In this document: positions 74 through 61,723 of the stretch, piece by piece
How positions within the stretch are numbered: the first letter of the stretch is position 1
Layout: the number at the start of each line of letters is the position of its first letter
NCBI GenBank assembly: GCA_965287045.1
Contig: OZ336885.1
Span: 62,682,001 to 62,746,000 of the forward strand
Direction: 5' to 3'
From: Carcharhinus amblyrhynchos
Lineage: Eukaryota
Length of the DNA: 64,000 nucleotides
Position numbers and translations under genes: made by a program
The notes under the pieces: model-generated
Told to the model about the DNA's origin: nothing
What the model saw: only the letters and a program-made list of their open reading frames with translations
The model's database searches: none

Positions 74-100
74 AGGACAAGTTGGCCGACAAAGAAAAAG
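74..100 (+). CDS. Micro-exon class A, 27 nt (EDKLADKEK)
   Basis: cctcctaatag|AGGACAAGTTGGCCGACAAAGAAAAAG|gtaacc. Confidence 0.85.
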
Positions 101-3100
101 GTAACCTAAATATAAACTGCAATCCTACCGATAGCAACAACGTTGCAATCTTATGAAGGACCTATTGATATTCTTTGAGAGGAAGTTTATGCCTCATACA
201 CAACGAAGTAGTTTGGCCACTGGATTGACTTGGGCGATTTTGGATAAATATAATTCGATATGTGCAAAACAAGCGCAAAATTGGAGCACATTGTCTGACG
301 CTACTTTGTGATGGCCAAATATTAGGTAACATTTATGGATTAATCAATTGTCAACTTCGATAAACAAAGACTCTTCAATTATAAAATAAACAAATAATTC
401 TGCACTGCAGAACTATGGGAATGCAAAACATCGGTGCAACAATTAGGTGAGTATGGAACGTGACTGAAACACACATTTTTGCAAACTTTTTTAATGTCTA
501 ACTCTGTTTAGTTTCAGATAGAGTTTAACATGTCTGTAACTGTGCACATTTCATGCTTGCAATTGTACACACAAAATGCAATAAAATATCTGGCGGAAAT
601 TTACGAGATGTTGCCCCAGTCTCCAGTTAGCTTGAAAAAAAATAGAGTTGGTCCGTTTCTCCGGCGAGTTCTAATGCCCAACTTTATGAACTTACTTTGA
701 GAAAATAATAGCTAATCTGTGTCTAGACTGGAGAGACTGGGGGTATAGCCTAATGAGCCAGAGAGCGTGCAGATCATATCGCAGGAGCATGGAACTGCGC
801 ATGCATCGAGGCAGCACAAAAATGCAGCTTAGCTGCAAAAATAAACAACTGAGGGCCAAAAATATTCCACGCTCTCCTCCACAGACACCGGAGATCCGAA
901 CATTCCTGCCCCACGCAACTCCCATACAAGCCAACCCCAATGGCGCCCCCTAAACCCTCTGGCAGACGACCCCATCTTCACAGCCCCCTTCCGTACCCCG
1001 CCACCCCTCCCCGCCCAGGCTCTGATGGCTTATTGACATGCCCCCGACTCCCTTGCCACCAATTGCCACAGACGAAAAATACCCACCCCCCCCCCCCCCC
1101 CCCACCCGCCACCTCCATACTAAATCCATAAGCGCACCTGCAAATTACTGCTTGGCTTTTCTTTAATAACAACAACGCAAAATCATTTAACCCGCTGGAA
1201 TGCTCCAGCGGACGCTAAGCTCGATCAACGTTCTTTCAGATGATCTGCCCTGATAAGACAGGCCTGCAGTGTGGAAATAAATTGTCACCAGGAAGACAAA
1301 TCCTAATCTTCAGGAGGCAGACCTGACCAGGTTGCTGGAGGATGCACAAAAGTGATATTCTTCCCCGTAGCAGGACGCCGTCCAAGATGAAGGAATGGAA
1401 TAGTAGCTTGGGAGTCGGTGCAACATGGGGGTTACTGCCAGAGAACTGGACAGGTGAACCGGGAGGCAGTACCATAGAGCGGTCGTGATTTACGGCTTGG
1501 AAACTGGTCCTTCGGTCCACCTTGTACAGGCTGCGCCTTTGTTAACCCATACGTTAGACCCAAATATTTGTGTTTGCTGTACATCAGTCTACACCCACCT
1601 TGCCCATGTAACTGTCTGAACGCGTTTTTAAAGTAAAAATGCTACTGGCTCCGCTACTACCTCTCGCAGTTTGCTCCAGAAACACATTTCCCTCGATGTG
1701 AATCAATTGTCCTTCTGGACCATTTTGTTTCCCTCCTCTCTCACCTTAAAACCATGTGTTCTACTTTTAGTGTCCCCTACATTTGGGAAAATAGCTTGAC
1801 TACCTCATGATCTATATCGGTTATTATTTTGTAGCTCGCTATAAGATCATCTCTGAGCCTCATCAGCTCGAGAGAATATGTCCCAGTATATGCAGCCTCT
1901 CTTTTGAATAAAACCATCAAGTCCCGGTGCGCCCCAGTAAATATTTTCTGTGCTGTTTCTAGTTTGAAATATCCTTTCTATAATAGGGTGACCAGAACTG
2001 TACATTCCATTCCAAGTGTGGGCCTCACCAATGTCTCATACAACTTCAAGAAAACGTACCAACTCCTTTATTCAATGTTCTGACCAATGGATGTCTTCTT
2101 CACCATTCTGTTCAACTGTGACTCCATTTTCAAGGAGTTATGAATCTCTAACCCTAGATATCTTACTTCAATAACTCGTGCCAACGTCCTATTATCAACA
2201 AAGAAAGCCTTGCATTTGTCCAATCAAACAAATCACCTCGCATTTATCCAAGTGAAACTCCATCTGTCATTCTTCAGCCACTTGCCCAATTGGTTAAAAT
2301 CCTGTTGCAATCCTAAATAACGTCCTTCACTGTCCACAATGCCACTAATCTTGATGTCTTGTACAAACTTACGAACGGTACTTGCAAAATAGACATCCAA
2401 CTCATTAAGATAAATGCCAAATAAAAGTGGACGCAGCACCGACTCCTGAGGCACACTGGTGGTTACAGACCTCCGGTTTGAAAAATAACCCTCTACAACC
2501 GCCCTCTGTCTTCTGTCAACAAGCCAATTTGGTATTAATTTGGCTACGTCGCCATGATCACTTGAGATTTAATGCCATGCAACAAACTAACATGCGCCCC
2601 CTTGCCAAACGTCTTGCTAGAATCCATGTGCACACAATCAACTGCATTGCCCTCATCTACCTTCTTGGTTCCACCTGAAAAGAAACCTCAATCAAATTTG
2701 TGAGACATTATTTTCCAATCACAAATGCATGCTGGATTTGCCTAATCAGTCCTTGCATGTCTAAAAGTCTGTAGGTCCTCTCTATCAAACACTTTCAATC
2801 AACTTAATCAGAAAAGATGTGTGGATCATTGGCATGTAGTTCCTGGACTTTTCCTTGCAACCCTTAAACAAAGGCATCACATCTGCCATCTTCCAAAAGT
2901 CAGGTACTTCACCTCTGACTATTGAAGACACAATTATCTCTGTAGAGGACACGTAATTTCCTCCCTAACCTCCCACACTGCTGCACGAACTTGAGTAACA
3001 TCATCCCGGAAACAAGCGATTTTTTTTTTCCTTCAGCTCATATCTGTCTGCCAAATGACCTGTGATGTCCTCCACCATGAGGGCCTGAATGTCGTCAACA

Positions 3101-6100: not shown

Positions 6101-9100
6101 CCATGAGCATGATCAGCCCGTCAGCTGTGGACCTCTGTGACTCGGCCGCTGACCTCTGGAACTCTGCTATGGCCTGCTGTGACTGGTCATCTTTTGGATC
6201 TCATCACTCTTCATGAGGGTTCACTGCCCTTGCCTTTCCACTGCAGACTCCACCCTTGTAGTCCTGGCCAAGAAATCACGCAAGAGAGATAATTGCAGGT
6301 TTGGCTGAAATTTTTGGGACTCCTCCCATTAGCGTCACAGTTAGTCCAGTTTGGCTGTTAGCCTCTCTTACATTCCCTGTCTCTGTTGTTGTGTCTTCAA
6401 TAGCTGAGGGAGAAGTGACCACAAAGGTCCAGTATGCAGGCTGGACCTAGCTGAGACCCCACCACCGGCAGATTCCTGCATGCCAGAGACCTCAGATGTT
6501 CCCTGCCCCACCCGATGTAAACTATCAGACGTGCTCTGCTCTTCAGAGGGTGACCCAGAAGTCTCACCACTAACTGGAACCTCCAACGGATCAATATTTG
6601 GGATGGTCAAGAGCAAACTTAATGCTGACGCCAGAAATGTGCGTCCCAAAGGGGTCCCTTCTCCCGCTTCTACTGAAGGATTGCCTGAGTTGTCTGGAGC
6701 AGGATGGGTGGCAGCCAGTCAGGGTCGAAATGGAATATAGCCCCAGGGTGTTCTGATCTGTTCTTACGACACGGGACAAAAGTTAAAGTGCAAGGGGTTG
6801 AAATGTATCCACAATGCAAAAAAAGATAGTTGTCATTCACCAGCGAACATCAAGCAGAGCACCATGAAGATGACATCACAGCAACACGACCCTTTGTCCC
6901 CCAAGCCTACAGCAACCAGGCTGCCAAATTTAATTGTAACCCCTTAGTTCCCGGGGCCAGATGCCTCTAACCGCATCCCATTCACTTAGATGTAAAGACA
7001 CAGCTTTAAGGGCAAAACCATCTGTCGCTGCAACATCTCTGGCAGCAAGTTCGAGACAGACATCACCCTCACCGTGCAAATAAAAATGCCTCGTACATTT
7101 CCTTAAACTTTGCTCCTTGCCAAAATAAAAATGCCTGAAATTAAGGCGAAAATTGACAGATTCTCCATCTTGATCCCTGCTCAACCAATCCGCCTGTGAC
7201 AGTCCACATCTCTCGTTCCCTGGACAGCTCCAACGTCCACTTTTCAAAAGCAGTGAGAACCCGGAGGTTTGACTCAAAACCGCCTGTCTTCACCATCTGT
7301 CTGGTGCTATTGTTGGCCTTCTCCTGTGGAGCAGAAGGAGCGGTGAAATAAACGAAGTGAAAGGGCCATGGTACCTTTGGGTGAGATAAGAGGAAGGTGG
7401 TTGGAGTGTCAGGAGCTGGAAACATGCAGGGCACTGGGGATGGAAGGACCTGGGACAGACTTAGTGGAAGTTGCTAGATGGAGTTAAGCACTCACCCTTG
7501 CGGCCCGGTTGACGTCATTAACCGTGTGGCAAGTCTGTTTCCCTGTTCTGGTGGCCAGTGTCATAGCACTGAGAGAGGCGATGATTCCCAGGCCGCATCC
7601 CCATCAGTCCCACTGGCATCATCCCTGGGGACGATGATGTCCCAATTCCCCTCCGTCACATTCAGCACATCCCGAGATCACCCTCAGTAAATCGGGTAGC
7701 GTGATGGACTGGTTGTTTGGTCTTATTTTCTTCCACTGCCTGTCTGTCTGTTCTTCCTTTGGTTTGTTCGGGAGCTCCTCCTTGTTTGGGCCGATCAGCT
7801 GCAGGCAGTTTGGCAGAGCATTTCTGCAAGATACATGCAATTTGTTTGTAGGAGTTGAGGGGGAAGGAAGTGATTTCTTGAAGGTATTATACTGCGTGGA
7901 CGGTGCATCAGTCGCCCTGTTATTAGGGCAGGGCTGCCGTACAGTCATCAAAGTCAGAAGGAGATGAGGACCTTCTGCAGAAAGGACCGTGATCGGCGTG
8001 AGGAAAACAGGGTACTAGTTCTGGCTCAGTCAGTGAGGGAGAAGGGGCGGCGATCACTGGTCTTCTGATCAGTGGGCAGAGTTGTACATCTATCACTCTG
8101 CCTTAGATCGGTGGATGGGATTTGGGCTCTGCTGCCACTCTCTGGATGGGTGAGGGTCGGGGGTGGGCGGGAGGGGGGGGGGGGTTCGCTGCCACTCAGC
8201 CTGATATCGCTGGGGGAAGGGGGATGTGCCTGTGATCGGTCAGCATGTCGAGGAGATTGGGTATAAGGGGGTCAGTTCTATTATGGGAAAACGGATGCTG
8301 AGGCCAGACGGAGCATTATCCGAACTGGAATATAAGTGGCAAGCTCCGTGCTGAGAGTCTAAGTTTCGACTTCGTCATCAAAAACTGCAAACCACTCACC
8401 CAATCACCCGCACACTACCCCTCATCCATTGCCCCCCCCCCCCCCCAACCCAACACCACCAAGCCCCCACCCCCCAACACACACACACACACACACAAGT
8501 GAAGCACGGAGCAGCTTGAAGGCAAATAATTACATCATTTGCTAACATTTCTGATCAAGGGCCAGAATTCGACTTCGACGATTAGAAATATAGCTCGCTA
8601 ATATCTTCATAATAGTGAAAAAAAAACACAATAAACATGTGAATTGGCATTTCGTCCGTTTTGGGAGAGATCCCCATCACACGCATTTTCTTTTCGCGCT
8701 GGAGTGGGAATGGGATCGATATCAAGTGGTATTTCCGCTAGCAGTTTAACGCAATTTTATACAGCAATTTCCAGCCGTAAACCAGCCGCAACAAGGTCGT
8801 TAAATACAGCCTTACTATGACGTTTTGCAACAGCAGTGCCTTTTCGAAATTGAATAGAGATGCCGATCAAATGTCGATTTGTGATACAGATCAAGATATT
8901 GAAAAGTTGTGTAAAAGTATCAACCAAATAACATTATGCTACATTCTTGCTTTGCACGATAAACTAACCAACATTGCAGTAACCTGCATCAATTTACCAA
9001 ACGTTGGCAATACCATTACTTCCTAATAGAAGCGAGATTGGAAGAAACAAACGGAGGTAAACATATTCAATCATTGCAAACTTCTAAAAAATGTGAATGA

Positions 9101-33279: not shown

Positions 33280-33314
<35 letters not shown>

Positions 33315-45300: not shown

Positions 45301-47153
45301 ATGAACACGAGTGAACTGGTTGCAAATTTTGTCTGTAATGGAAAAATAAAATTGATAGGATTGTTTTCACATTATTAGTGTGATCTCTGCACTCCTGATG
45401 CATGTAAATATTGCCTTGAGGATAGAGTTGGTACATTATGAAATCATTTAGCAGTTGCTTTGATTCGGAGAGCATGACCTTATGGATTATACACTTCATT
45501 AAAAAAGATTTTGGAGTTTTGGAACATGTGCGATTAGTAAAATTGAAAACTACAACTGCAAATTTGGAAAGTAGCTGATTCTCATTTTTCTGCATATAAC
45601 TCAGGTGATGGAAAATTATAAGCGAATGGGAAGGATATATTTTCAACGAAAAACTCCCTAACGATTTTCCAGTATATACTATTTTCTGCAATGTGGAACA
45701 GTATATTATTTTTTTCACAGAGAAAACGGCAAATGTGTTTGCCCACGACAGCAAAATCTTTATAACTCACTATTATTCTGAAGAAAACACGGCCAAAAAA
45801 AACTGTTCCATAACAGGGCTCATTCAGCATTCATGTAAGAACCTCTGCTCACGTTCTTAACCATGATGTTCAACTGGAATAAATAATCCAAAAGCAAGCT
45901 ATCTTTCCAAAAAAAGAACAAAACAAGCTAGGATTTGTACCGCAGGTTCGGTTCTGATTTATCTGATTGGTATGCATCGATATTTACTGGTTCATTTCGC
46001 CGTTCATGAAATAAAATCCGCTCCTTGACATTCCAGCACTTTTTTTTATCAGATTATAGATTTCGTGCTCTCCACGAATCAGCATTCTTGTTCGGTAAAT
46101 TGCCAATGACTCCATTATCGGTTTGCATCTGTCGCGCCAGTATTCCAGCCCATACCATATTACATTTGCGAAGTCAGTTTACATTTTTTTTAATCGTACG
46201 TGCCTTTGCAGGAGTTGAATTTAGTAACTTACTGATATCCTGCTCTGGGTATTCTTTTCTTCCCCCTCTCTGTCTGATAATGGATTTATTTCAGAAATAT
46301 ACCTTATTAAAATACTTTTTTTTTTCTTCCCGTATTTACTTTAGTATCTGCAAATTGAATACTGATATTGCACATGGTGTTCTAAGTGTACAATAATACA
46401 AATGCATAGCTTTGTCAAAAATGATGCCACCATGTAACTCATGTTTCTCCCATGCAGAAAAAAAATTGAGAGGTAAAGAGAAAAGTTATTTTATGACAAT
46501 GAATGTGTGTTGATTTATTGAAAATGTACCTGGGAGTGGGGGCGAAACGTTTGATGTCCATGAATGTGTGATATGCAGCATTATATATTTGCTGCTATTT
46601 GTCTACGGTTAAGTTACAACACAGGATATAATATCATGTCAATCAACTGATCAGCACATCTGAAAGGGTTTTGTACACTTGCGCCAATGCCCAAGTGAAC
46701 CACTGCTAAAATTTAATGACCGTTCAGTTCCAGATAGCTCCTAATTATAGTGAAACTGCATGTGCAATCACCCACAGTATAGATTCATATTTGAGTTTTC
46801 ATTTGCATTTCCTCGCTTTGTTAGCATTTAAATCAATTCAAATCATCAAACAGTATGCAAATATTCTTGACAGGCATGCACTTAAAAGTAGTGAATTGGG
46901 GCTAGGGTGCTATTCAGGTAACTACTATAAAGACTTTCAGAGCATTTGAAAAAAAAGAGACTTCTGTGATCCCCAGCACTTACCCCACCCCCACCTCCCC
47001 CCCCCCCCCCCACCCCCAACCCCACCCCCAGTCGAGTTGAAATTCAACATGGCAAAACCATTGTCAGGTTGACGCCAAAGAACAGAAACAAGAAGTAATG
47101 CCATTCAAATAATATAAAAAAAAACACATTTTGGTCGTTCTCTTTCTGCACAC

Positions 47154-47190
<37 letters not shown>

Positions 47191-50100: not shown

Positions 50101-50440
50101 TGTCTGCACATGTTTCTATTTTGCCTGGAACAGATGACATGATTTTCGAGCTAAAAGAAGGTATTTGATAGAATTAAAAAAAGTTCTAACGATTAGAAAA
50201 TGTAGTTGTATGATTTGTTTTTGTTCGTCATAGGAAATAAGTCTTTGCAAAATAAATAATCGTGTTTAAAACGTAGATAATATGTCGATTTTACAAAATG
50301 AAAAAAAAACTGGGGATATTATTAATTCCTACTCGTACAGAAATAGATCAAAATTGATTGCCCATACATTAATTCTAATTGAAATCCCAGAAACAGTCGC
50401 AAAACAAACAGACACACACACAGACAGACACATTCATGCA

Positions 50441-50476
<36 letters not shown>

Positions 50477-53400
50477 CACACAACAAGAAACCGGACAAAG
50501 CAAAACGAGTGAAAAAAAAAGTAGGCTGAAACAAAACGTATTGTTAAGAAGTGTTTTAACATGATTTCTTCTATACTTCCCACAGTATGCACAGAAGCAA
50601 GCCGTATTTCTTTTGTGATCATATTTTCAAAAATTTCTTCGGTGACTTTGCAGTTTATTTTTGCGCAACTCCTGTTTCCTCATTGTGATCGAATTGTCTG
50701 TAAACAGGCGGATATATTATGATGTTTTTGAACACTAGAAAGATGGAAACGATAAATGTGCATCAGCACATGTGTAATGTGTGTTTATATGTGTGCGTGT
50801 GGGTGTCAGTTTGTGTGTATGCGCAGTTGTGGAATTGCTAATTCGAGGAGAGAAAAAAAATGTGCAAGTCACAAGTGCCAGTGAGTCTGATCACGGATTT
50901 GAATTAATGAAGAGCTATCGCACAGAGCAAGTTCAACTAAAAAAGACTGACGTTAGAAAAATGTCAACCTCATTTAAACTAATAAAGATTTGGATAGAGA
51001 AATAAATGAAAGGATGATAACTGCAAAAAAAGAAATATTCAGAAAAAAAGAATAATGTGCTAAGCAAATTGCTAGACTGACAGACCATCATGGTTAAGGT
51101 AAAAACTTTATAATTCCAACATTATTTGAAAATAAACGATGCAATATGGTCCTCATTACAAGATACGTAAGACAGAGAACTTAGTCGTCCAAAAGAGCAG
51201 GTTGCAAGAAATAAATGTGATAATTTCTTCAAGCAAGAGCCAGTTCGCATCAAGTAACTTGAGACCGAAGTGAGATAGGGAGTGGTGAATGAAAAAAAAA
51301 CAACTATTGCTATACAATGTTATTATGCCAGAAATGTAAATTGATTACGTTGCAACGGCATTCAAGGATTACAGGGGAGTGAGTGGTTTTCTCTGGGGAA
51401 ATAAAATGAAATATGACGTGAGACATGGAATGAAGATCAGTGGAGGAGATGGATTCTCTTAACTTATCCTGGATTGTTAGATTGTGGAACCTGAATCTCA
51501 TCGTGCTCAACCAAGCAGTTGCAGATTTACATTGGGGGATTTCATTCAAGTAAAAAATAACACAGAGTAAAGCAAGGTACAGAACAAGAAGAGGTTCTTT
51601 GACCCTTCATGTCTGTGCCAATCATGATGACGTCATTAAGTAATAAAATGAAAACATTCTGTCCTCACTGTCTCCATATCCCTATATTCCATCTCTATCC
51701 ATGTACCCACATAGAAGACTCTTAAGTGTTGCTGATGTGTTTGTTCCCACCATCCTCTCTGGCAGCGCGTTACTACCATGAAAAAATGACATGAAAATAT
51801 TCCTCCCCATATTTCACTTAAACTTCCCCCTCACCTTGAAGCCGTGCCCCGTTCAAATTAAAAATTCAACCCTGAGAAAACGACTTTGGCTATCCATCCT
51901 GTCTGTGCCGCTCACAAATTTATGATCACGTTCCTCGGCCTCCGAATGTCCAGTGAAAAGATTTCTTGGTTATTCAACCTCCTGTCATAGTCAACAACCT
52001 CGAGAACAGTAGAAATCCTGTTTTTTTTTGCACTATCTCCAAAACTTCCCGTTCCGCTGGTGAAGTGGCGACCAGAACTGCACGCACTACTGGAAATGAT
52101 TCTTAACCATGTGTTTACATTGCTACAAAATGAATACCCAATTGCTGTACTAAATGCTTCTCTTGCAATCTTTCCACGTTCTCCAGGAAATTTCCTTACT
52201 CATGGAAGCCCGGAAATACATTTGTAGCACAGACGGTTCAGTCAGTAGAATTTCAACGATGGCTTTGCTTTGAGATTCTCTTCGCAGAGTAATAATCAAC
52301 CGTCACATACCAATGTGAATGTTAGTTAATGTGTCGTAACGGATTTTTCAAAAGGTAGATTTATTTTTCAGAATCCATGAACAGCATTTCATGGAAAGGA
52401 GGAAAAGAAAACGTGACAAACGATTGAGAAAATACGTTGAGATCATCAGATATCAGGATCAATTGGATACAAACAAAGTGAAATTGGCAACATGGGAGGA
52501 AAAGAAACTGCGATCGAAACAGGAAATTGTTTTGAGTGACGAGCTGAGCGTTCGTTAAAATTGGAACAGGAAAAGGGCTGATATCAAAAAGTCGCGATTA
52601 AGGGTGAATGCAGAAGCTGACTTGGGACACATTGGAGCAAAGTGGCATGCGTAGATGCGCAGAACTTTAGGGAGTAATGCAGAATGGAGACGACATAAGG
52701 CATTGGCTTATTATTGAGTATCTGTTCCAAAAACGTAAGGATTTACACAGCAAAAGTGGTGCGGTTGTATGGCACATACCGTTGCCGTCCTGCTTTGGTT
52801 GATTAAAGTCGGCACGGTATGGAAGTTCAAAATTGATTTTGAAAATAAAATAGACGCAACGAAAGCCAAACACTTTAGGGGCAATTCGAATACGTAGATT
52901 CTTACAATGTGCGAAGTTGGATACCTCACCCTCTGTCACAATGACCCTATAATTGAACGAACATAATGCAGATGTCAGTAAATGCTTCTCAACAAATGTT
53001 TCTGGTGTGTTCACCGATCCAGAATTAAGCCGGTGTCAAGCAAACCTAAAGGATTCACGTAAGCACCCTGTTGCCAGTCTGCATGAAACTTCTCAATGTA
53101 GTTTTGTCATTAATTACATTTCGAATGTGCAGTTTCACTTTCTGTACAAATGCAAACTATTTTTTTGTTGTTGTTACCTGTAAGTCCTGCATACTTACAG
53201 CATGAAAAAGTTATATCCTCCGGAAATGGCAAATAACAAAATTCTTAAGAATGGATGTTGATAACGAGCTGTATCCATTGTGAACGCTTCTAGTGGTAAT
53301 TACATTCGCAGAGTTAAATCCAAGCCATTCATTTATATGCAATACTGTACATACAGAAGAGAAGGAAACTATTACAAAGACAACTATTGCTTTGTTTTGA

Positions 53401-56400
53401 CATTTGTCACAACGTTGCTTGGAGTGTAGAGGTGTGGCGAACAGGCTAAATATTGTTCTTTCAAATAACTCAACATTCTTCTCGTCAGTTATAATTTATT
53501 TCCAACACTTGGCATATGAAAACGTACGTATTAGAATCCCTATTCATTGAAAGAGAAATTCTATCCTTTACCTATTATTCGACGCCGCAAGTGCCTACAA
53601 CCATTCTAGGACGGAGCACATTGCCCAGGGTTACTTTCTGGCCTATTCTCGTGCCCCTGCGAATTTTCTTCTTCCTTTGCTGTGTGACCTGTCCAACACA
53701 GGGTGTGATAATATAGCACGATAAATCCAACCACCCAGCGCAATTTTGTATTGAGGAAGGAATTCCAAAAACGTGGGAAACGCCAAGCAGTCGCGGAGGA
53801 AAGGAGCAAACATCACACATTCACGCAAGGCCAGTATCAGCCGTGGTTCTTCCGCACAACTGTGCAGAAGTAAAAAAAGAACAACGGATTACACTTTAGA
53901 AATGTAAGCATCCGCAATACAAATGGTAAAAACACATCAGTACATAGCAGGTGTTATAACCATTGTCATTCTTGGCGAAATGAATTATTTTCTTCGTGGA
54001 TATCATTGGCCCACTTGGCGATATGATAAAACTATGCCTGAAGGCAGTTTCTGTTGAACAGAAGGAACATCATCATGTCATAGATTTGAAATGCGTTGCA
54101 GCACCAAATAGATCATTCAGTTCATCATATGCTTGCCAGCCACCAGGCACCAAAATATTCCATCTCAATATTCCAGCACCCGGTCTGTGGTTCTCTGTTA
54201 TATTGAGATTTAACGTGTCACTAAAACGCTTTTGAAATATTTAAGGGTTCCGTTATGACCGATCCTTTAAGATGGCGAGGCGCAGGTCATTTTTGTAACA
54301 ATGCCATTTCCCCGAAAAAAAACAGTTTCTGTCCCATAACCTAAATTTCTGCTTTATGTTCGCTACCCTCAGTATTAAGGCCAAATGTGTCTTCATTTTT
54401 ACCCTACCCGAGGCCGTGATATCTTCGGGCCATTTAGCTTCCCACTTAGCCTACCTGCTCCAATGAAGCAACGTCCTCTAAAAAGAATCCTCTTCATATC
54501 TGAAACGCTCCAGAACTGGTAGTGTGGAAAGGGAAAGGCATTAGTTTTACTTTTAATGAGTGTTCTGACTGAGAGTGAAGCGTGCTGGGAGTTTTGGTCA
54601 ATTTACGGATAAAAACCAGAGTCAGGTCGGAAAGAGATTCTGATCTGTGAGCTGTAATCCAAAACTTCCTATGTTGGGCAGATCACGGAAGTGGTTGACA
54701 TCAACTGAGACAGCATGGCTCTGATTTACATGGATATGATGTATGGGACATGTAAAATGAACTAAGCATCATGGAGTCGTTCAAAAGTACTTTTAACTGG
54801 ATGTTCGAAGGACGTGACTGATTTATGGTTGCACAGTTAGTCCGATGACAGATAATCTTCCGGAAGCAAGCGGAGAATTGTGGATAAAAGGCATTTCAGT
54901 TCTTTGTTTGTCAGTGATAACTTCAAGGCAGCAACTATCACAACAAGACTTTGTTCCATGAAGAATGCTTCAGGGAGGAGAAAGTTGATTCTACTTGGAG
55001 GATATTCCCTGTTCAAGATTTCCTAACTCGTTAGTACCTACTTTCAGCTAAATATTAAGAGTTGATGCTCAGTTAGAGTTAGGTTTCAGTTAACAGTTAA
55101 TGAGTTACAACCGTTGATGTTTAGGTTGACACTAAAAGTGTTAAATGAAGAATGAACTGAATTACTACGATTTTTTACCTCTTAAAAATGGAACGCTTGG
55201 AACGTGTTTAGTTTAAAGATGTGGAACAGTGGATATTATGTTTTACCTCCTCAAGTGCGAACAAGTCGTTGTATAGTGTGCCGTGCAGAACTGCGCACAG
55301 CACACTATAAAGAGGCACGCTCTGAGAACACATTGGAACCCTTTACATCGTGGAGTTATTCTTTTCAATTTCAATAATATTGTCTTTTCTGTTACTGCAT
55401 CTTGCATGTTGACATTTTTCAGGCTTAAATGTTATTCATTTCGGCTCTGCCCGTCAACAGTTTTGTCGATGGCATTCTTTCGGGCTTTTTATCAAACGAA
55501 TAATATTCGGGCGATCTGTGCAAATCAGGTCAAGCCTTCTGAATTCACGTCAACTTCATGAACGTAAACTGCAAAAAGCACACAATTCAGTGCCAATTCC
55601 TACATTATATCTCTGAACAGGGACTTCTAGCCACAAAAACAAAAATAAACTGATCATCTTTGCCTTCTGCAACGAACCCAGTTCTGGATCCCCTTTGCGA
55701 CATGAATTCGGTCCAAAGATCTCTCAATATTTTGACCAGTAATAAATGCATTAAATATCAAGTGTGCTGGTAAAATCCATGTGGAAAACAAAACGTGCAC
55801 AGTCGTAATTTACAAAGTTCAGGCATCTTCTTGAATTAAGCAGTACAATTGGTTAGCTATGATTACTCCCTGATAAAGACACACTGCCTGCTCCTGACCA
55901 TTCATTGTCTCTCTCAGTAGAGAGTAATTATCAGAAACAAATCCAAATAATTTCCCGAACAGACATGTTCAATTGCCTGCAATTACTTGTTATATCACCA
56001 TATGCCGTCTTGAATAACGATGTCACATTATTTGCGCACAGTCACCAGGCACGTCTCCTGCGGCCAGGTATGACATGAAATTTATTGGCAGAGCGACAAC
56101 ATTTTCTCCCTTCTGTAAGGCAGCAGACTGTGATAAATCTGACCAAGGCTTAGTGATTCAGCAAAGTTTATTTCCCGTGAGACTAACATGACGTTCTCAA
56201 TCCCAATGTTACTTAGTTCAATTGATTGACACTTCCCTTCTGTTATTCATATTATCCATCTACGTAGTGAACACAGCCGCAAACATAAACAAAAAAAAAT
56301 TGAATAATCTGACTATGTCCTTCCTCTCCACATGCGCATTGGGACTTTGTTCACGAACAGTCCGTTCTCATTCACGGGTTGTCCTTTCCCTTTATTCTGT

Positions 56401-59400
56401 GTATAACAGATAGTGAGACTTTCTGTTATGCTGCACCACCATGATTATTTCTCACACCTCCATCAACTGCTTTAAATAATTTCCACATGCATTTCCTGCT
56501 TCTACTTTTTCAGCCTCTTGAATCAGTTTTTTTTTCCTGGTGCAATCATTTCTGAATCTTGTTATTCAGTCTTCTGTCGACATGCTTTACCGACCCTTTA
56601 TGTTTACAGAATCAAGTTTTCGTTCTACTCTCTTCATTTGTTTCTTCAACTTCGCCAACTGCTATCATGTGGAATTTCTTGAATTTGGCTGTACCTAGTC
56701 TTATTTACGCAAATATTGCCATAACAACTTAAAATCTGCATTGTCCCATTTTGGAACTTTTTTTTCTGAATCGATCCACAACTGTCTTAGCTGACTTGTA
56801 ACTTCACTGGCACAATATTTCTACGAGAAATTTCAACTAATCCGATATCTCAAACTCGTCATTAGAAATTTGTGTATAAATCATTGGTATTTCTATCATG
56901 CTGCTAAGGATATTAATACATATCATAGCTAACGATATTAACAGTTATTGAGTTGTCGTCACTATCAGCAATACACTCCTCATTGACATTTCTGTCACAA
57001 CGTTGTCTTTATTCAAGATAACTTGGTCCAGCACTTCCGCTGATAATGTGGAACATTTCTCTTTTGGTGAACTGATTCTCTTAAAGTAATGTGAGAAAAA
57101 AATTTATGCATTTCACAAAAAAAAACATTTTTTTTTTAGTTTCCAGATGTAACGAAAATGTATTTTAATCCATAAAAATACATTCGAGACAAATATAACA
57201 TACGGACGAGGGAAGCCTTCGAACGGACAAGAAGTTCGGAGTCAATGTGACGAACCCCACGACGAGCTGTGGCACAGGGTTGAAGTTCATTGCAATGGTA
57301 TCCTGCGGATATCTAAGTTCTTCCTTCTAACTTGCTTACACTGTATTAACTGTCTTGGCGACATGTCAGACCAGAACATGATTGTTGCCTCAGCTAATTG
57401 TGAAACACTGCACGACTGAATGATCTTAATTTGTGAACTCAATTTCAGGATTGCACCACCTGGCATTCTTCACTATCTCTCTGTTATGACACTGTAAGGA
57501 TGTTATCGACTGAATGCCTTTCCCAAAGACACTTTGCCAAGACAATCGGCTGTATCAGTCCAAGGCCATTTGACAGACGCACCCTTATGCCCATACAATA
57601 GGTCCTTTCAATTTGACATTTAACGTTTCATTCAGTGTTTCAAAATGTGTCATGGCTCGAATCTTCTTGATAATTTATGATGACTAAATTATTATCCATT
57701 TCGAGTGGTTGAATTTCAACCGTCTCAGCAATGTTTGTTAATTTGTTGTGGCGAATATGAGAAATTTATTGCATATTTTCACTCATCAATCAAAATATTG
57801 TTATGGATGAGTGAAAATATACAATGTTATATGATGTTATATGTTATATGATGTTATATGAAGAAATTATATTGGACATATCTACAATACTTGCATGCAT
57901 ATTGCCCTTCTTGCATTCTCACCGGAATCATTGTCCCTTCTTTGTTTTTAAATAACACAATGAAACCATAATGTATGAAATCATTGTCCCTTCTTTGTTT
58001 TTATATAACACAATGAAACCATAATGTATGACATTGCTCCGGGATGAGTAACATCTGAGGTCATGCAATTCTGAACGCGGCACAATTTGAAACACTGACC
58101 TCGAAATCGCGCAGACAGCTCCAGATCACAACGTTGAGGAGGAACTTGACAGTCATAGTCTGACAGGCTGGGCAGGAAATGAATACACATAAATAAAAGA
58201 AAACTGAGCAAATCTAGAGTTAAAAGCAGTTGTATAAATGGATGCTTAATGCACATTATCTGAATTCATAAAACATTTGCAGCAATATTTCTACTTTGAC
58301 AGTACAGATTACAACAATGTTGTATTTTCCACTACAGAAGAAAAGTTGCAACGTGATGAAGATTGCATTGTGTGGTCACTAATTCCTGTTTTAAAGTATA
58401 TGGAACGGAAAGGCCAAACTGGATATGAGATGAGGACTGTTCCTGTGGTGTACCTTCCCTTTTGCTTTGTTAAATGTTGTATTTGACATTATTTTTGCGA
58501 GTGGGCACAAACCAGAGTATGAGGGAATTCCTGATACAATTTGACAGTCAACATTTTGTTTCATGAACTTTGTGTGCAAATTTATTTAGGAAAATTCCAA
58601 ATTTGCATGGAAGCAGGAGTCACAGGAGCACTGAGTGATCCAGCCATGATACGGGTCAGTAGGATGTATTCAGACAGATGTTCGAAATGGAAAACAAATG
58701 TTTATCTTAAAAAAAAACAGCTTTTCCACCAGAAAGTGACAGCACCCATGGTTCACAAAAGACGTCAAGGATGACGTTAAATTGAAAAGCAGCATATACA
58801 TAGTGGAAAGGGATAATTGTAATGAGTGAGATTTCTTTCTTAGAATCCAACAACAAGTTGTTGACAACCTTATAACAAGGGAAGACAATAATATTCCGAG
58901 ACAACATACACGCGAAAATACTCAAATAATACAATGCGCAAAGAAAAAAATGAAATCACAGCGTAGGAACATATCATTCCGCCCTAAAAGGCTGTGCCGA
59001 TCATAATGTCCTAACTGGAAAAAAAAATCTGGTCTGAATCTGTTCCCAAACCTTTGTTTCCTCGCTATTCATAAGCGACCCAGTTGCTTGCTCAACGTAG
59101 CGAACGTTTCTGCTTCTACCACATTCTCCTGCAGTGGGTTCCAGACAGCCGCTACTTTCAGCGTGTAAAACATTCCCCAAAAATATAATTTTACGTTTTC
59201 CCCTTTCACCTTTAATTGTTTCCCTTTGGAACTGACACCCCCGCCCATGGAAAACACTACCGAATATGCACCCTTTCACTGGTTCTCATAATTATGTTCC
59301 CATCTGTCAGGGCTCACATCTGTCTACATGTTCTGAGTGAAAATAATCCCCGTTTACGTAACCGCTCCTCATGACGAAAACGTCGAAACCCGATAACATA

Positions 59401-61723
59401 CAGATGATCGCTCTTTGCACTGTCTTCAAAGTTTCCACGTTCTTATGGAATGATGATGACCAAGACTGAATGCAGTACTAAAATGCGACAAAGCGTTTTT
59501 TTTTGTACTGTTGCACTATATTTTCGCAACTCCCGTATTCAGTGCGTCGGCTGATGAAGGCAAAGATTCTATATGCCTTCGTAATCACATTGGTCTCCTG
59601 CGATGCCACTTTTAGGAACCCTGAATCTGTACTCTCAAATTCAACCGTAGGTTCGCCTTCCAAAGGGTTGAGTCAATTACAGCATAATTCACAACTAAAT
59701 TAGATAGTCTGAAATGCATTACCTCATATTCATCCAATCTGTCTTTCCTCCAGCCAAGTATGAAATCTGGTAATGTATTGTTGCGCTCTCTGACAATCCC
59801 CAGCACTGTCAACAACTCCGAAATATTCGTATCAACCCGGAAATTAATATTCCGACCGTTCACACCAATCGCACCAGTTCATTTACATGTACTCGAAATA
59901 ACTAAGGCCCCGGCGCTGATCACTGAGGAACAAAGTCATGTGTTTGTTTATCCAACTGTGCATGCATCCTGTCCCAGTATATTCTCCAAAAGTTCCCCCG
60001 GCACGATATCAGGCTCGTCGGCATAAATTTTATTGCATTATTCCTGGTTTATTTCTTAAACAAGGGAACAAGAATTGCTATTTTTCCGCCCCCTGGAAAA
60101 CCCGTGCGTTCAAAATGAAAGTGAGGCATCCACTACTTCCTCAGTTATCTCTACCTTTCCCTTCCGAAGCAGCCTGAAATAGACTCAATCTGAACCCCGG
60201 CACAAGTCGATATTAATGCAATTTAGGACACTCATCACTTCCTCCTTTGGTGATTTGACGTTCAACACAGCATTCAGACACTTTTCACTGACCTCACAAT
60301 CCGTCATTTCCTTCTCCTTGTTAAGTACTGATGCAACCACTTTTTAAGGATTTCACATAATTTCGGTGATTCCGCGCAAACTTCCGACCATTTTTATCGA
60401 GTGGGCCTAATATTTCTCTTCCAGCCTTCTTGCTGACTTTATTCCGAAACAACGTGAATCGAAGTTGTATTTTAATCATTGACGTTAGTTTGAGATCAGA
60501 AGTTGTACATGAAATATGTTTTTCTTTTGCTGTCTCTTTCACAGAGGATAAAATAAACGAACTAAAAGACGGTATGCAAAATAAAGAGGATTCATACCCA
60601 TGACAAAAAAAAACATGCTGTGTTTGCATTCGTACTCTACTGGAAATCTATAGGAAACTTGTGAAATTGATGACCTTGTTTGCAAGGGTTTGAAAGTATG
60701 TTGATTACGCTTAATGTGTAAGATGAAAACGTTAATAAGCTACCGCATGCAGAGAAGCATCAACGCTGATTCCTGCGAAAAGAACCATGCTCCACGTCCA
60801 GAAATCGACAAAAGAAAACACTTTTATTCAAGGCTGCCTCATGAAAGGAATTGAATCACACAAAAGTTCACGATTTTTTGAATAGAAAATGGCATGCTAT
60901 GCATGAAGTATGTTAGTTTATGCACTTGATAAGTCCTTCTTAAAAAAAGACAGTGAAGTATGTTCTTGATTTATTTAATAGTTCTCATGATGTTTGTATT
61001 TCTGCGCATGGTTAGGATTTCAGTGAAATCAAGAGGCAAGGTGTAGAATGACATTAGCAGTGTTAAAATAAATTATAAAAATCACGGAAAAAGCTTGATA
61101 TTTTAGAGAGAAAATTTTATGGAAATAATCTGTATCAGTGCGATCGTTATTTTGTGTGACTGCGCACTTTTACGCGCATGCGTGCATGTGTTTGTTGTGT
61201 CAGTGTGTGCCGTCTCGATTTGTGTATTTGCTTGTTTACATGTCTACAAGCGTTTATCGAACTGTCCGCCACGCAAAACACATTACGCTACTTGATTGAG
61301 GCACAAGTGATAGTGATCACGGAATTACTGATTGATTGAAATGCACAAAGTATTGTACGTATGCGCAATATCAACGATATTGGCTAATCTTACGCGGCAG
61401 AGAGCAGAACGTTTAATTTTTAACCCTAGGAAGGCATGGGAAACGTACGTAACATCGACACATATCGCAACTTTCTGTGTTGATTGTGTGTAATTTCAAA
61501 ATTTGATTCGATAGAAACCTGGAAAATATTGACTTCAGGGAATAGATAAGAAGGGATAGCAAAGATGAAGACAATGGATCGAATCAAGTCCCACTCTACC
61601 ATACTAATTGTATAATTCCATGAGTACAAATGATCAACCTGTAAATGCAGAATAATTAACTTAGTCGACTTTGCTGACCCAATCCAGACATTTCGAAGTG
61701 CAGAGGAGCTTTACATGATACAG
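74..61723 (+). CDS. Partial multi-exon host gene (both ends outside window): coiled-coil protein encoded by 27/36-nt phase-1 micro-exons
   Basis: 17 AG...GT-bounded exons (11 x 27 nt, 6 x 36 nt; 513 nt) splice to EDKLADKEK ELWECKTSVQQL EARLEETNG ELSKCQEVSKEL EEKLTAKER EGQIKDLKE ELGNCQNTVKDL EQRLREQEK AAEKLAKEK DDRICELNA ELSKCQESLKDT EKKLRGKEK KAISEAKEK DDMIFELKE ELSRCQANLKDS QDKINELKD DISKCRGALHDT. No stops, mutual similarity between exons, 3-4 hydrophobic spacing. First residue assumes an upstream exon ending in G. Confidence 0.85.
411..446 (+). CDS. Micro-exon class C, 36 nt (ELWECKTSVQQL)
   Basis: ctgcactgcag|AACTATGGGAATGCAAAACATCGGTGCAACAATTAG|gtgagt. Confidence 0.85.
   Translation, partial: NYGNAKHRCNN
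590..4645. mobile_element. Decayed Harbinger/PIF-like transposon, left half (Myb gene on +, transposase C-terminus on -), interrupted by a CR1 LINE
   Basis: TIR-like ggcggaaatttac at ~592. Frameshifted Myb/SANT-like remnant on + at ~1290-1510 (NLQEADLTRLLED..FFPVAGRRP..AWESV..TGRQ). HARBI1-like C-terminus on - at ~4385-4640 (RRALQYS..GCVIHSLAQKAG). Boundaries approximate. Confidence 0.5.
1560..2970 (-). mobile_element. CR1/HER1-like LINE fragment (RT domain to 3' end)
   Basis: ORF 2233..2454 (PQESVLRPLLFGIYLNELD..KFVQDIKISG..LQQDFNQLGKW) matches the CR1 RT motif PQGSVLGPLLF.IYINDLD..KFADDTK. ccagaactgtaca..ttccaagtgtgg is the reverse complement of the LEYCVQFW region. Confidence 0.9.
4646..8780. 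mobile_element. Decayed Harbinger/PIF-like transposon, right half (transposase tail on +, multi-exon Myb gene on -)
   Basis: Acidic tail and HVREAMIIRQFCR* on + at ~4650-4861. Myb/SANT exon on - at ~7496-7700. Low-complexity downstream ORFs 5545..5982 and 6368..6649 on -. TIR-like caatttccagccg followed by taa at ~8765-8780. Confidence 0.55.
7496..7700 (-). pseudogene. Harbinger Myb/SANT DNA-binding protein exon remnant
   Basis: Reverse-strand reading across a frameshift: ATRFTEG..VLNVTEGNWDIIVP..AAWE/IASLSAMTLATRTGKQTCHTVNDVNRAAR, ending at an AGG|gtgagt donor. Confidence 0.7.
9030..9056 (+). CDS. Micro-exon class A, 27 nt (EARLEETNG)
   Basis: cttcctaatag|AAGCGAGATTGGAAGAAACAAACGGAG|gtaaac; acceptor cctaatag is the same as at exon 74. 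Confidence 0.8.
10300..10950 (+). mobile_element. Old, heavily decayed CR1-like LINE fragment
   Basis: Degenerate similarity to the PVSLTS / QHGF..GRSCLTNL region (gattttattttaggcaaggatggaagtattgacacaaatt) followed by a 3'-tail-like segment. Confidence 0.4.
11072..11107 (+). CDS. Micro-exon class C, 36 nt (ELSKCQEVSKEL)
   Basis: gaattatccag|AATTATCCAAATGCCAAGAAGTTTCAAAGGAATTGG|gtaagc. Confidence 0.85.
12540..12591. repeat. (GC)n(CA)n microsatellite
   Basis: cgcgcgcgctcgcgcg followed by a CA run. Confidence 0.9.
14030..14120 (+). mobile_element. Short decayed Penelope-like terminal fragment
   Basis: tctgaa..ccagaatcgaacgtctgctct..gacctgctgaagttttccaacattttctgt resembles the common chondrichthyan repeat ..cgaaacgtt..agacctgctgag..tccagcattttctg. 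Family assignment from memory. Confidence 0.45.
14540..14860 (-). mobile_element. Decayed LINE 3' fragment (same family as 24540-25110)
   Basis: ggatgcaggtatggctgg..gccctgagaatg..ttgaaccgctgc pattern typical of a chondrichthyan LINE 3' region. Confidence 0.45.
15577..15890 (-). mobile_element. V-SINE/HE1-like SINE
   Basis: ggaaacaggagcacccgga..agaacatgcagactccaaacaga is the reverse complement of the V-domain core (tgtgtggagtttgca..tccgggtgctccggtttcc). LINE-derived tail at ~15580-15630. Confidence 0.75.
16300..16577 (-). mobile_element. HE1-like tRNA-derived V-SINE
   Basis: Reverse strand reads ..cggcacagttgacaacactgctg..cagtgtcagggaccctgggtcaattccaggctcgggtcactgtct..tttcctccgaaccttcggtttcctcc: A/B-box-like head plus V core. 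Confidence 0.85.
17976..18074. repeat. Near-perfect inverted repeat (hairpin, ~45-bp arms)
   Basis: tatttaagtaataatgcacagagttactggaatgacaaacgcatt pairs with aatgcctttgtcattccagtaactctgttcattattacttaaata with 2 mismatches; loop tgtcatgcc. Confidence 0.9.
18735..19356 (+). mobile_element. 5'-truncated CR1 LINE 3' end, relatively young
   Basis: QLEYCVQFWSPHLRKDI..LNRLGLYSL..FITQRVVNLWNSL..GIKVYGEKEGKW, then 3' UTR tcagccatgatct..gggctaaatggcctactcctgctcctat. Confidence 0.95.
19641..19842. mobile_element. Small non-autonomous Harbinger-like MITE remnant
   Basis: GC-rich island in AT-rich DNA, starting ggcaaaattctccgg and ending near gagaattccc (imperfect TIR-like ends). Confidence 0.5.
21246..21272 (+). 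CDS. Micro-exon class A, 27 nt (EEKLTAKER)
   Basis: tttttatctttacag|AAGAAAAGTTAACGGCAAAAGAAAGAG|gtacct. Confidence 0.85.
24540..25110 (-). mobile_element. Decayed LINE fragment
   Basis: ttcttgcacggctgcagt..agggaattccaggatttt..gcgagttcctgcagtacatcttgcagg..ttggtccagttcagtttc, typical chondrichthyan LINE antisense sequence. Confidence 0.6.
25120..25710 (-). mobile_element. CR1/HER1-like LINE 3' end
   Basis: Closely similar to 1600-2080 (caccttaaac..ctataagatca..gaactggacactttattccaagc..ctcaccaatgtc..acaacttcaac). Confidence 0.85.
26303..26329 (+). CDS. Micro-exon class B, 27 nt (EGQIKDLKE)
   Basis: ttttgtcgctaacag|AGGGGCAAATAAAAGATCTAAAAGAAG|gtgagt. Confidence 0.85.
26800..29540 (+). mobile_element. 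Decayed CR1 LINE RT region split by a GC-rich insertion
   Basis: NLLKLFE / FQ..FKNVPHQ.LLQKIK-like motifs at ~26860-26990. Similarity resumes after ~29350 with ttcattcaaaaggcttgtgaggttctggtactctcc (FTQRVV.LWNSLP-like). Confidence 0.7.
27757..29350. mobile_element. GC-rich foldback-like non-autonomous DNA element (probably Harbinger-derived)
   Basis: Abrupt GC/CpG-rich block. C-rich arm ~28080-28530 and G-rich arm ~28770-29090 carry complementary motifs (cgcgatccaacccc / ggggttggatcgcg; ccctgggaggc / gcctcccaggg). Confidence 0.65.
29644..29710 (+). mobile_element. Very short HER1/HE1-type 3' tail
   Basis: atggtcggcgcaacatcgagggccgaagggcctgtactgcg..taatgttcta. Confidence 0.75.
30359..30394 (+). 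CDS. Micro-exon class C, 36 nt (ELGNCQNTVKDL)
   Basis: ttcgttctgttgtctag|AGTTAGGAAATTGTCAGAATACTGTAAAGGATCTAG|gtgagt. Confidence 0.85.
30778..30804 (+). CDS. Micro-exon class A, 27 nt (EQRLREQEK)
   Basis: gatttctattag|AGCAAAGGCTGCGTGAACAAGAAAAAG|gtagac. Confidence 0.8.
31145..31171 (+). CDS. Micro-exon class A', 27 nt (AAEKLAKEK)
   Basis: tttgtcttcttcacag|CGGCAGAGAAGTTGGCTAAAGAAAAAG|gtactt. Confidence 0.85.
32214..34300. mobile_element. Decayed Harbinger-like DNA transposon remnant
   Basis: Starts gggggcaatttccc (TIR-like), GC-rich with G-tracts, weakly complementary right end near 34260-34298. No clear ORF. Confidence 0.45.
34790..36050. mobile_element. GC-rich Harbinger-like remnant
   Basis: G-tract and 'gcgatc/gatcg' motif composition like the subterminal regions of neighbouring Harbinger elements; no coding remnant recognised. 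Confidence 0.35.
38226..39520 (+). pseudogene. Harbinger (HARBI1-like) DDE transposase, frameshifted
   Basis: Motifs in order across frames: RPHISFEALSEELCQSWLRLS, GGHPFPVAVNLTATVRFYASRSFQ..GD, FLNWKGFY, NVQIVCDH, GWLLGDKGF..WLMTP, RYN, VVEQCFVLL..RSGEALQY, RNAFLAARF. Confidence 0.92.
41927..42170 (-). pseudogene. Harbinger Myb/SANT protein first exon remnant
   Basis: Reverse-strand fragments HLLDGVEKRCDHLL.. and VTDLVNARSLTPCSGRKCPKNKLHDGLRAAR. Same RAAR exon end as 7496-7700. Confidence 0.7.
43204..43230 (+). CDS. Micro-exon class B, 27 nt (DDRICELNA)
   Basis: tttatgcctcaaacag|ATGACAGAATATGTGAGCTAAACGCAG|gtatgt. Confidence 0.85.
44104..44139 (+). CDS. Micro-exon class C, 36 nt (ELSKCQESLKDT)
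   Basis: gattacttttcag|AATTGTCCAAGTGCCAAGAAAGTTTAAAGGATACAG|gtaaac. Confidence 0.88.
46458..46484 (+). CDS. Micro-exon class A, 27 nt (EKKLRGKEK), weak donor
   Basis: tttctcccatgcag|AAAAAAAATTGAGAGGTAAAGAGAAAA|gttatt; alternative internal donor GAG|gtaaag after 46472. Confidence 0.6.
47156..47220. repeat. (TG)n microsatellite
   Basis: Direct TG run with a degenerate tail. Confidence 0.9.
47892..47918 (+). CDS. Micro-exon class A', 27 nt ([K/E]AISEAKEK)
   Basis: tattgtatttcacag|AGGCAATATCCGAAGCTAAAGAGAAAG|gttcgt. Confidence 0.75.
50134..50160 (+). CDS. Micro-exon class B, 27 nt (DDMIFELKE)
   Basis: attttgcctggaacag|ATGACATGATTTTCGAGCTAAAAGAAG|gtattt. Confidence 0.85.
51575..52160 (-). mobile_element. 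CR1-like LINE 3' end
   Basis: Tail gtacagaacaagaagaggttctttgaccc..; ctctggcagcgcgtt; ggcgaccagaactgcacgcactac (reverse complement of YCVQFWSP). Confidence 0.85.
53023..53058 (+). CDS. Micro-exon class C, 36 nt (ELSRCQANLKDS)
   Basis: gttcaccgatccag|AATTAAGCCGGTGTCAAGCAAACCTAAAGGATTCAC|gtaagc. Confidence 0.85.
54050..54490 (-). mobile_element. Decayed CR1-like 3' fragment
   Basis: catcatcatgtcatagatttgaaatgc..ttccagcacccggtc..cttcccacttagcct..ctccaatgaagcaac. Confidence 0.5.
57926..58031. repeat. 53-bp tandem duplication (1 mismatch)
   Basis: aatcattgtcccttctttgttttta(a/t)ataacacaatgaaaccataatgtatga, two copies starting at 57926 and 57979. Confidence 0.95.
58960..60450 (-). mobile_element. 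Decayed CR1 LINE (RT to 3' end)
   Basis: ORF fragments FYTLKVAAVWNPL..VVEAETF and KAYRIFAFISRRTEY; gaccaagactgaatgcagtact is the reverse complement of EYC.QSWS. Confidence 0.85.
60545..60571 (+). CDS. Micro-exon class B, 27 nt ([Q/E]DKINELKD)
   Basis: gctgtctctttcacag|AGGATAAAATAAACGAACTAAAAGACG|gtatgc. Confidence 0.85.
61688..61723 (+). CDS. Micro-exon class C, 36 nt (DISKCRGALHDT)
   Basis: gacccaatccag|ACATTTCGAAGTGCAGAGGAGCTTTACATGATACAG|gtaagc. Confidence 0.85.

Follow-up and report, generated by a model that had tools for sequence, protein, structure and literature searches.

Introduction

The B30.2 domains of butyrophilins (BTN) and TRIM proteins are cytosolic, and butyrophilin exons have phase-1 borders. 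Enterophilins combine a long heptad rod with a B30.2 domain, BST2/tetherin is a disulfide-locked extracellular coiled coil, schistosome MEGs are made of symmetric micro-exons, and the stalk of the C-type lectin CD23 is encoded by a 63-nt repeat. According to the parts of the reports used here, small heptad exons in butyrophilin genes precede a B30.2 exon that ends the gene (PMC4046983), and the products form a coiled-coil dimer beneath the B30.2 domain (PMC4046983, PMC7348870). Chicken BG genes, as outlined in the first of these sources, encode a long coiled coil by many tiny exons, are alternatively spliced and vary in length; the exons code for 7 or 8 residues and lie behind IgV and TM exons, a 3′UTR exon comes last, and the gene plan given there has 21/24-nt exons and no B30.2 exon (PMC4046983). 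Vespryns and ohanin are described, in the excerpt used, as extracellular B30.2 proteins (PMC12730704).

In this study, we analyzed a stretch of 64,000 nucleotides (the window; C16:62,682,001-62,746,000 of a 2.92-Gb shark assembly), for which a preliminary description had proposed a gene made of micro-exons, together with 1.02 Mb of flanking DNA. Coordinates in the flanks are given relative to the window.

Materials and methods

Candidate exons in the window were collected by a scan for AG-27/36-GT units with a pyrimidine tract and by weight matrices, for which upstream-of-window exons only (18 of 27 nt and 15 of 36 nt) served as training set. All splicing of this gene was done in silico, and all relatives used for comparison are predicted gene models. 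The features are collected in Table 1.

Table 1. Features of the micro-exon gene in the window and its flanks (window-relative positions)
Feature	Position	Strand	Source	Remarks
Putative signal-peptide exon	-513446..-513351	+		good acceptor and donor
27-nt phase 1-1 exon	74..100	+	scan, matrix	
36-nt phase 1-1 exon	411..446	+	matrix	Cys at codon 5
27-nt exon	9030..9056	+	scan, matrix	
36-nt exon	11072..11107	+	scan, matrix	Cys at codon 5
27-nt exon	21246..21272	+	scan, matrix	
36-nt exon	22077..22112	+	scan, matrix	Cys at codon 5
Part of copy 1 of ~65-kb block	22315..64000	+	block comparison	
27-nt exon	26303..26329	+	scan, matrix, block comparison	
36-nt exon	30359..30394	+		Cys at codon 5; absent with 30778 from block copy 2
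27-nt exon	30778..30804	+	matrix, block comparison	in run of three
27-nt exon	31145..31171	+	scan, matrix, block comparison	in run of three
27-nt exon	43204..43230	+	matrix, block comparison	in run of three
36-nt exon	44104..44139	+	scan, matrix, block comparison	Cys at codon 5
27-nt exon	46458..46484	+		weak donor GTTATT, retained in block copies
27-nt exon	47892..47918	+		weak donor GTTCGT, retained in block copies
27-nt exon	50134..50160	+	scan, matrix, block comparison	
36-nt exon	53023..53058	+	matrix, block comparison	Cys at codon 5
Decayed 27-nt pseudo-exon	58338..58364	+	matrix, block comparison	no GT donor
27-nt exon	60545..60571	+	scan, matrix, block comparison	
36-nt exon	61688..61723	+	scan, matrix, block comparison	Cys at codon 5
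Terminal B30.2 exon	+386075..+386595	+		172 codons, phase 1

Results

Micro-exons of the window

On the + strand between positions 74 and 61723, scan and weight matrices together identified 18 AG/exon/GT units, 11 of 27 nt and seven of 36 nt, all in phase 1-1. The scan returned a set of look-alike, stop-free and charged exons on the + strand only and none on the minus strand. The preliminary description had recognized this array of phase 1-1 micro-exons but counted 17 of them; its 513 nt equal 11 × 27 + 6 × 36, so that one 36-nt exon was probably overlooked. The coding sum of the 18 exons is 549 nt, or 0.89% of the 74..61723 span, in agreement with the share below 1% stated there. Joined in silico, they contain no stop in the phase-1 frame, against 17 and 11 stops in the other two frames.

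At a matrix score of at least 10 bits, 12 of the 358 27-nt candidates and seven of the 360 36-nt candidates on the + strand of the window were retained, while the minus strand gave none among 387 and 370 candidates, respectively, and 60 dinucleotide shuffles yielded on average 0.23 (27-nt) and 0.08 (36-nt) matches per shuffle. The highest shuffled scores were 13.9 (27-nt) and 12.6 (36-nt), whereas the 18 window exons scored 19.0-38.3 bits; comparison with the minus strand and shuffled sequence, suggested at the outset as a check, therefore supports the array. The window micro-exons are real and lie far above chance expectation. A tandem-repeat or microsatellite artefact as their source was rejected, and an Rfam search of the window gave no match.

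The twelfth 27-nt match, at 58338, has GC in place of its donor, and its copy in the next block lacks the AG and is frameshifted, which identifies it as a dead exon. Together with a second dead micro-exon at +239303 (in-frame stop), it documents exon turnover within the array.

Extent of the gene

Outside the window the array continues in both directions, from about -483 kb to +382 kb, and 125 of 143 predicted small exons lie up- or downstream. By prediction from the DNA, the window is the middle of one ~900-kb shark gene on the + strand, about 15 times larger than the 62 kb first assigned to it. The predicted model (117 exons placed by matrix score, 26 added by hand) comprises 143 small exons, the putative signal-peptide exon included, and then a terminal B30.2 exon. 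The small exons measure 27 nt (79), 36 nt (52) or another length (12), so the earlier statement that all are exactly 27 or 36 nt holds inside the window but not for the whole gene (131/143); 141 donors are GT and two GC. The 4,983 coding bases, equal to 0.55% of the 900-kb span, give 1,660 aa with no internal stop, and the median intron is 3.2 kb. The model is least certain in its 5′ third, which is probably incomplete. Four sequencing runs aligned to the gene covered introns and exon alike and thus behave as DNA of related animals.

Several other features were seen along the locus. Between -422 and -351 kb, a Cys-free N-terminal unit recurs about three times, once every 17-18 kb; it contains near-identical 36-nt exons and Gly/Pro-containing exons of 42/45 nt that would break the coil. 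One intron, at about -28.5 to -21 kb, holds a retrovirus-like element on the minus strand. Its long open frames measure 575, 808, 648 and about 300 codons, and Pfam recognized in it protease, RT, RNase H and an integrase with an MLV-type C-terminal domain. Downstream of the gene, a short hydrophobic open stretch at +419354 looks like part of a helix from a class A GPCR.

Terminal B30.2 exon

Spliced in silico, the array reads in frame into the terminal B30.2/PRY-SPRY exon; a B30.2 exon had been among the flanking exons to look for, and it is the last exon of the gene. Pfam detected SPRY in it (E 1.1e-15) and no PRY. A phmmer search with the B30.2 domain matched 89 PDB sequences with TRIM21/BTN3A1 on top, and its AlphaFold model (pLDDT 83.6) is predicted to have the TRIM7/BTN3 PRY-SPRY fold, the best Foldseek match being TRIM7 PRYSPRY (E 4e-13, TM 0.77). 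The domain carries no conserved Cys pair. A C-type lectin/CD23-stalk idea, based on the 63-nt repeat, was abandoned after the B30.2 exon appeared.

Gene family and relatives

The sole close database protein for the B30.2 query is catshark XP_038668997.1 (“TRIM39-like”), 76% identical over the domain, in accordance with the proposal of a chondrichthyan gene. Upstream of its B30.2 domain this protein has counterparts, in the same order, of the five last small exons (+355,621, +357,179, +359,883 (24 nt), +362,767 and +381,537), with 14 residues between them that have no firm match. The remainder is unlike the rod of this gene, which fits an annotation that lost the array; as had been anticipated, annotation misses the gene, the catshark model retaining only the last few micro-exons.

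The genome contains seven paralogous B30.2 exons (29-44% identical); C16 carries five of them (60.4-66.4 Mb) and C9 the other two (104.0 and 106.4 Mb). A pattern from the first 28 bases of the Cys-free 36-nt exons gave 46 genome matches (control 16), of which eight belong to this gene, 12 lie on the right strand ahead of three paralogous B30.2 exons, and 26 are scattered. All 12 paralogue-linked matches are stop-free and have a GT, which is not part of the pattern, exactly 36 bases past the AG. In a matrix from these 12 exons alone, the 36-nt exons of this gene rank on top, and one further 36-nt exon was found on the minus strand at -536,913, which probably marks a head-to-head paralogue. Exon-like matches on the minus strand lie at -549103, -536913, -531909, -498807 and -488155; the B30.2 exon at C16:61.08 Mb, >1 Mb off, would be the last exon of the probable paralogue. 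On C9, one B30.2 paralogue is preceded by seven 36-nt family exons, which extend over ~2 Mb (103.96-105.91 Mb) between clusters of BTN-type and TRIM genes and possibly represent a still larger gene or several genes. At least eight B30.2 genes of the family thus occur in one shark genome; micro-exon arrays were traced next to four of them and are hinted at next to a fifth.

Family members in databases comprise skate XP_055510696.1, which has a signal-like start and a short rod, and Narcine, Cetorhinus, Chiloscyllium and chimaera proteins. In trees of rows picked by similarity and rooted only at midpoint, the chondrichthyan family B30.2 domains, those of the seven paralogues included, form one 100/100 clade (16 of 48 rows) apart from BTN and TRIM, and in a second tree 12 of 24 rows fall into a separate clade. 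Chimaera XP_042192744.1 (“nuclear-pore anchor-like”, 1,697 aa) shares the layout of this gene; together with XP_007898089.1 (1,722 aa) it shows a hydrophobic start, a Cys-bearing rod and a B30.2 domain of the same clade, and its xLxxC repeats are spaced mostly by 21 or 42 residues. When the two chimaera models were compared, eight of 13 one-sided gaps were 9 or 12 aa, indicating that the exon code predates the shark-chimaera split. Pfam found no domain besides SPRY in the long chimaera models, and a profile of the 21-aa module of this gene did not pick out the chimaera rod.

Word-limited searches recovered few relatives and no full-length elasmobranch model: the catshark fragment alone among 300 candidates in a B30.2 search for longer proteins, three family members among 45 matches of a family profile, and, with the chimaera protein as query, nothing besides its own pair of models among 7,999 candidates. 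Turtle, bowfin and lizard profile matches were rejected as double-B30.2 proteins of ordinary type. A search for the MHC II beta family gave no match anywhere, controls included. Annotation pipelines shred the family into “TRIM39-like”, “A33-like” or “myosin-like” fragments.

Block duplication and selection

Part of the array lies in a ~65-kb block (16 exons and 162 aa when complete), which is repeated ~3.4 times up to +243 kb, with copies mostly 74-88% identical over introns. A degenerate tetranucleotide repeat of ~6 kb occupies +244 to +250 kb, where the fourth block copy stops. Two multi-exon differences among the genomic copies are whole 27+36 pairs, and the copy of the 61688 exon at +128390 has a 6-nt in-frame deletion that breaks the heptad register. 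Divergence among copies is 15.7% in exons and 15.5% in introns, with dN/dS 0.68. AG, GT and frame are kept in 49 of 49 exon copies, listed from intact exons with the 30-nt copy and the dead 58338 pair left out, against a neutral mean of 28. The block copies are under selection on splice sites and frame, not on sequence.

These data bear on a reading in which the array represents several genes or a partly dead expansion and only its last exons are spliced to B30.2. Exon drift at intron rate, the dead exons 58338 and 239303 and the catshark model with just the last few small exons would suit it. We hold it to be very unlikely: no second B30.2 exon was found on the + strand between the gene ends, splice sites and frame are kept in the block copies far above neutral, and the chimaera has a model of matching length and layout.

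Exon code and heptad register

A 36+27-nt exon pair encodes 21 residues, i.e. three heptads. In this module Leu occupies the a positions and Cys the first d position (24 of 26 modules), while the other d positions hold Leu/Thr/Ser and Lys/Leu; over the whole gene, 33 of 52 36-nt exons have Cys at codon 5. Between core 36-nt exons, 27-nt exons occur as ones (25 times) or threes (eight times) and once not at all, so that with two runs holding a 30-nt exon left out, 33 of 34 runs are odd. With the 30-nt exons removed, the number is 34 of 36 against an expected 68% (p 1e-4), these counts not being independent: the 3.4-fold copying of the block leaves only about three runs of three that are separate. 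Extra 27-nt exons are thus paired, and 21 or 39 residues separate successive 36-nt exons.

Heptad power was 6.18 for the true exon order versus 2.44±0.35 in 500 exon-order shuffles, in support of the modular coiled coil claimed in the preliminary description. Local heptad power, 6.96 in the intact array, fell to 2.32 when one 27-nt exon was removed in silico and to 1.68 when one 36-nt exon was, whereas removal of pairs gave 6.56 (27+36) or 8.67 (27+27). Free single-exon skipping is therefore doubtful in the core, as the heptad phase is lost with a change of 9 or 12 residues and kept with pairs. The idea of a rod length tunable by skipping is correct in that any skip keeps the reading frame, but a single skip breaks the heptad phase. 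Outside the Cys core single skipping probably occurs, since single pieces of 6, 7 or 9 residues distinguish the predicted isoforms of short paralogues; the differences between the chimaera models are single modules, too, and may be skips or annotation drop-outs. Exons that are neutral to the frame are not neutral to the structure, which leads to a sharp prediction of the skips that are tolerated, and the array clearly exemplifies selection that acts on the register of a protein and not on its sequence.

Candidate first coding exon

The exon at -513446 has an ATG followed by a 24-residue signal-like peptide and ends in phase 1. From these features it is likely the first coding exon, encoding a signal peptide or short signal anchor, and thus a candidate for the signal-peptide exon that had been suggested for the flanks. 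It was the sole match in 2 × 1.02 Mb to a strict signal-exon filter that was defined after the candidate had been seen; a looser filter gave 14 matches in the same DNA. It is also open from the acceptor in phase 1 (phase 1-1). Its uncharged run is 15 residues, compared to 25 in the TM of a chimaera butyrophilin, and by hydrophobicity the run is 13 residues in skate and chimaera family members. Room for further 5′ exons is limited, as a 36-nt exon of a minus-strand paralogue lies 23 kb farther up. If the signal-like/exon-like minus-strand matches at -488155 and -498807 were real, the 5′ ends of the head-to-head genes would overlap.

Discussion

Proposed protein

The gene is real and of the coiled-coil/B30.2 kind, and striking in scale and exon code. 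We see a slightly better than even chance that this one giant gene yields an extracellular, disulfide-laddered rod dimer with paired B30.2 heads. The first coding exon would provide a signal peptide (or short signal anchor) through which the chain would enter the secretory pathway; spliced in silico, ~140 phase-1 micro-exons give ~1,460 residues of coiled coil ahead of the B30.2 domain. Two chains would form a parallel in-register coiled coil ~200 nm long; at the coiled-coil rise of 0.1485 nm per residue, a rod of 1,463 residues corresponds to about 217 nm. With Lys at many d positions the coil would be weak alone and would be locked by a ladder of interchain disulfides, to which Cys at d is suited in two-stranded coiled coils. 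The two B30.2 heads at the tip would bind a partner protein, and the rod would be a spacer or cross-linker selected for length and register, not sequence, its length shifting via genomic duplication or loss of exon pairs and possibly via pair skipping. Its most likely use, admittedly a guess, would be as scaffold or ligand-capturing component of a secretion (mucus, plasma, reproductive-tract gel).

Predicted structures of a homologue agree with the paired rod. Two copies of chimaera residues 390-500, a number imposed on the prediction, were modeled as a parallel in-register pair (0.53 vs 0.01 for the best control; pLDDT 86), with runs agreeing in >=98% of contacts, and Cys419, 461 and 482 face their twins as three of the five closest self-pairs. 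This geometry would suit interchain disulfides. In calibration of the complex score with eukaryotic proteins, 17 of 29 solved pairs and none of 30 single chains reached the mark, as did seven of 16 animal pairs and one of seven without an older relative; for animals this calibration is thin, and coiled coils may reach the mark through memorised structures. Against secretion speak the cytosolic location of the B30.2 domains of BTN and TRIM and the lack of a conserved Cys pair here.

The protein could instead be membrane-anchored with rod and B30.2 domain in the cytosol, like a butyrophilin/BG tail without Ig head, the rod spacing B30.2 from the membrane or touching the cytoskeleton, as is reported of the BG-tail “zipper protein”. 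The phase-compatible heptad exons of BTN and BG tails indeed encode cytosolic parts, according to the part of the source used (PMC4046983), the chimaera protein has a basic cluster after its hydrophobic start, and the -513446 exon is open in phase 1-1. Still, we regard an anchored form as unlikely, given that a membrane helix would call for more than the 13-15 hydrophobic residues seen (chimaera BTN has 25), that a Cys at d every 21 residues is more simply explained by disulfides, and that RxKR-type motifs, which we take to be possible convertase sites, follow the start of the chimaera and tarpon proteins.

Quite unlikely, in our judgement, is a soluble cytosolic RING-less coiled-coil/B30.2 protein of TRIM- or enterophilin-like type, whose Cys residues would bind metal or sense redox and whose signal-like exon would be a chance match. 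The 14 loose signal-like exons leave room for such a match, and the Narcine and short chimaera paralogue models start without a hydrophobic stretch. However, those models may be 5′-truncated like the catshark model, skate and long chimaera models start hydrophobic, and no RING/B-box was found, neither by tblastn with four TRIM heads in 1.02 Mb nor among the 150 of 487 B-box candidates scored on C16. With hydrophobic starts of only 13-15 uncharged residues in three members, the extracellular dimer is favoured over its rivals.

Novelty and implications

In the literature covered, which was mostly open-access and searched by title and abstract start, no description of the family was found, and four accession numbers and the term “enterophilin” were absent from the papers checked for them. 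Tentatively, and with somewhat less than even confidence, we propose an undescribed cartilaginous-fish family of megabase-scale genes, older than the shark-chimaera split, whose two-letter 27/36-nt exon code writes secreted, disulfide-laddered, B30.2-tipped rods of ~200 nm, serving in recognition or as scaffolds, with pair-wise length tuning by splicing or duplication and uncharacterised bony-fish counterparts. If secreted, these proteins would extend B30.2 biology, so far mostly one of cytosolic sensors, to large extracellular rods and would bear on the origin of butyrophilin/BG-type genes in early jawed vertebrates. The gene likely arose from a butyrophilin-type gene minus its Ig and membrane exons, which phase-1 borders would allow to be removed without frameshift; shared phase-1 borders and C9 paralogues among BTN-type and TRIM genes suggest this loss.

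Comparison with known systems

The analogy to BG and butyrophilins drawn in the preliminary description is borne out by the terminal B30.2 exon; the Ig-V and TM exons for which it had suggested inspecting the flanks were not found by profile searches and tblastn, the only possible membrane segment being the 15-residue uncharged run of the candidate first exon. Specifically, PF22705 and chimaera BTN IgV gave no match on C16 (87/87 and 96/96 candidates scored), tblastn revealed no Ig exons in 1.02 Mb around the gene, and a generic V-set search covered 150 of 1,793 candidates. The gene design is butyrophilin/BG-like, yet the gene is not a member, as no Ig exon was found and its B30.2 domain groups apart. 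With butyrophilins it shares heptad exons followed by a terminal B30.2 exon and the same B30.2 fold; it differs in that IgV/IgC and TM exons were not found, and in its ~140 exons where butyrophilins have a few, the 27/36-nt code, the Cys ladder and a B30.2 domain in a separate clade. Like chicken BG, it builds a long coiled coil from many tiny exons, but these encode 9/12 residues, no Ig was found, a B30.2 exon forms the end and the gene spans ~900 kb.

Coiled coil plus B30.2 is also the plan of TRIM-B30.2 proteins, and database labels of family members read TRIM39/58/69- or A33-like. The gene is nevertheless no TRIM, as RING/B-box was not found in the searches given above, and the shark rod is ~10 times longer and built from micro-exons. 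Vespryns and ohanin, compared by the partial literature description only, share the extracellular B30.2 domain proposed for the shark protein, but are rodless and about 107 residues long.

The order of signal, coiled coil and B30.2 without Ig/RING is shared by tarpon XP_036374758.1 (labelled TRIM39), in which a signal-like start and an RGKR motif precede a long coiled coil and PRY-SPRY. Unlike in the shark protein, its PRY-SPRY is of the standard kind and falls outside the chondrichthyan clade in both trees, and the xLxxC repeat is absent; a position of its B30.2 domain as sister of that clade is compatible with the data (p-AU 0.39). In the ESM Atlas, both queries returned the same clusters, of 55-137 long SPRY proteins. 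Tarpon-type proteins are possibly a widespread uncharacterised bony-fish class, and our literature search found no functional paper on bony-fish proteins composed of signal, coiled coil and B30.2. From the tarpon domain order and the common ESM Atlas clusters, the architecture is probably not confined to sharks, while the 27/36 code with its Cys may be.
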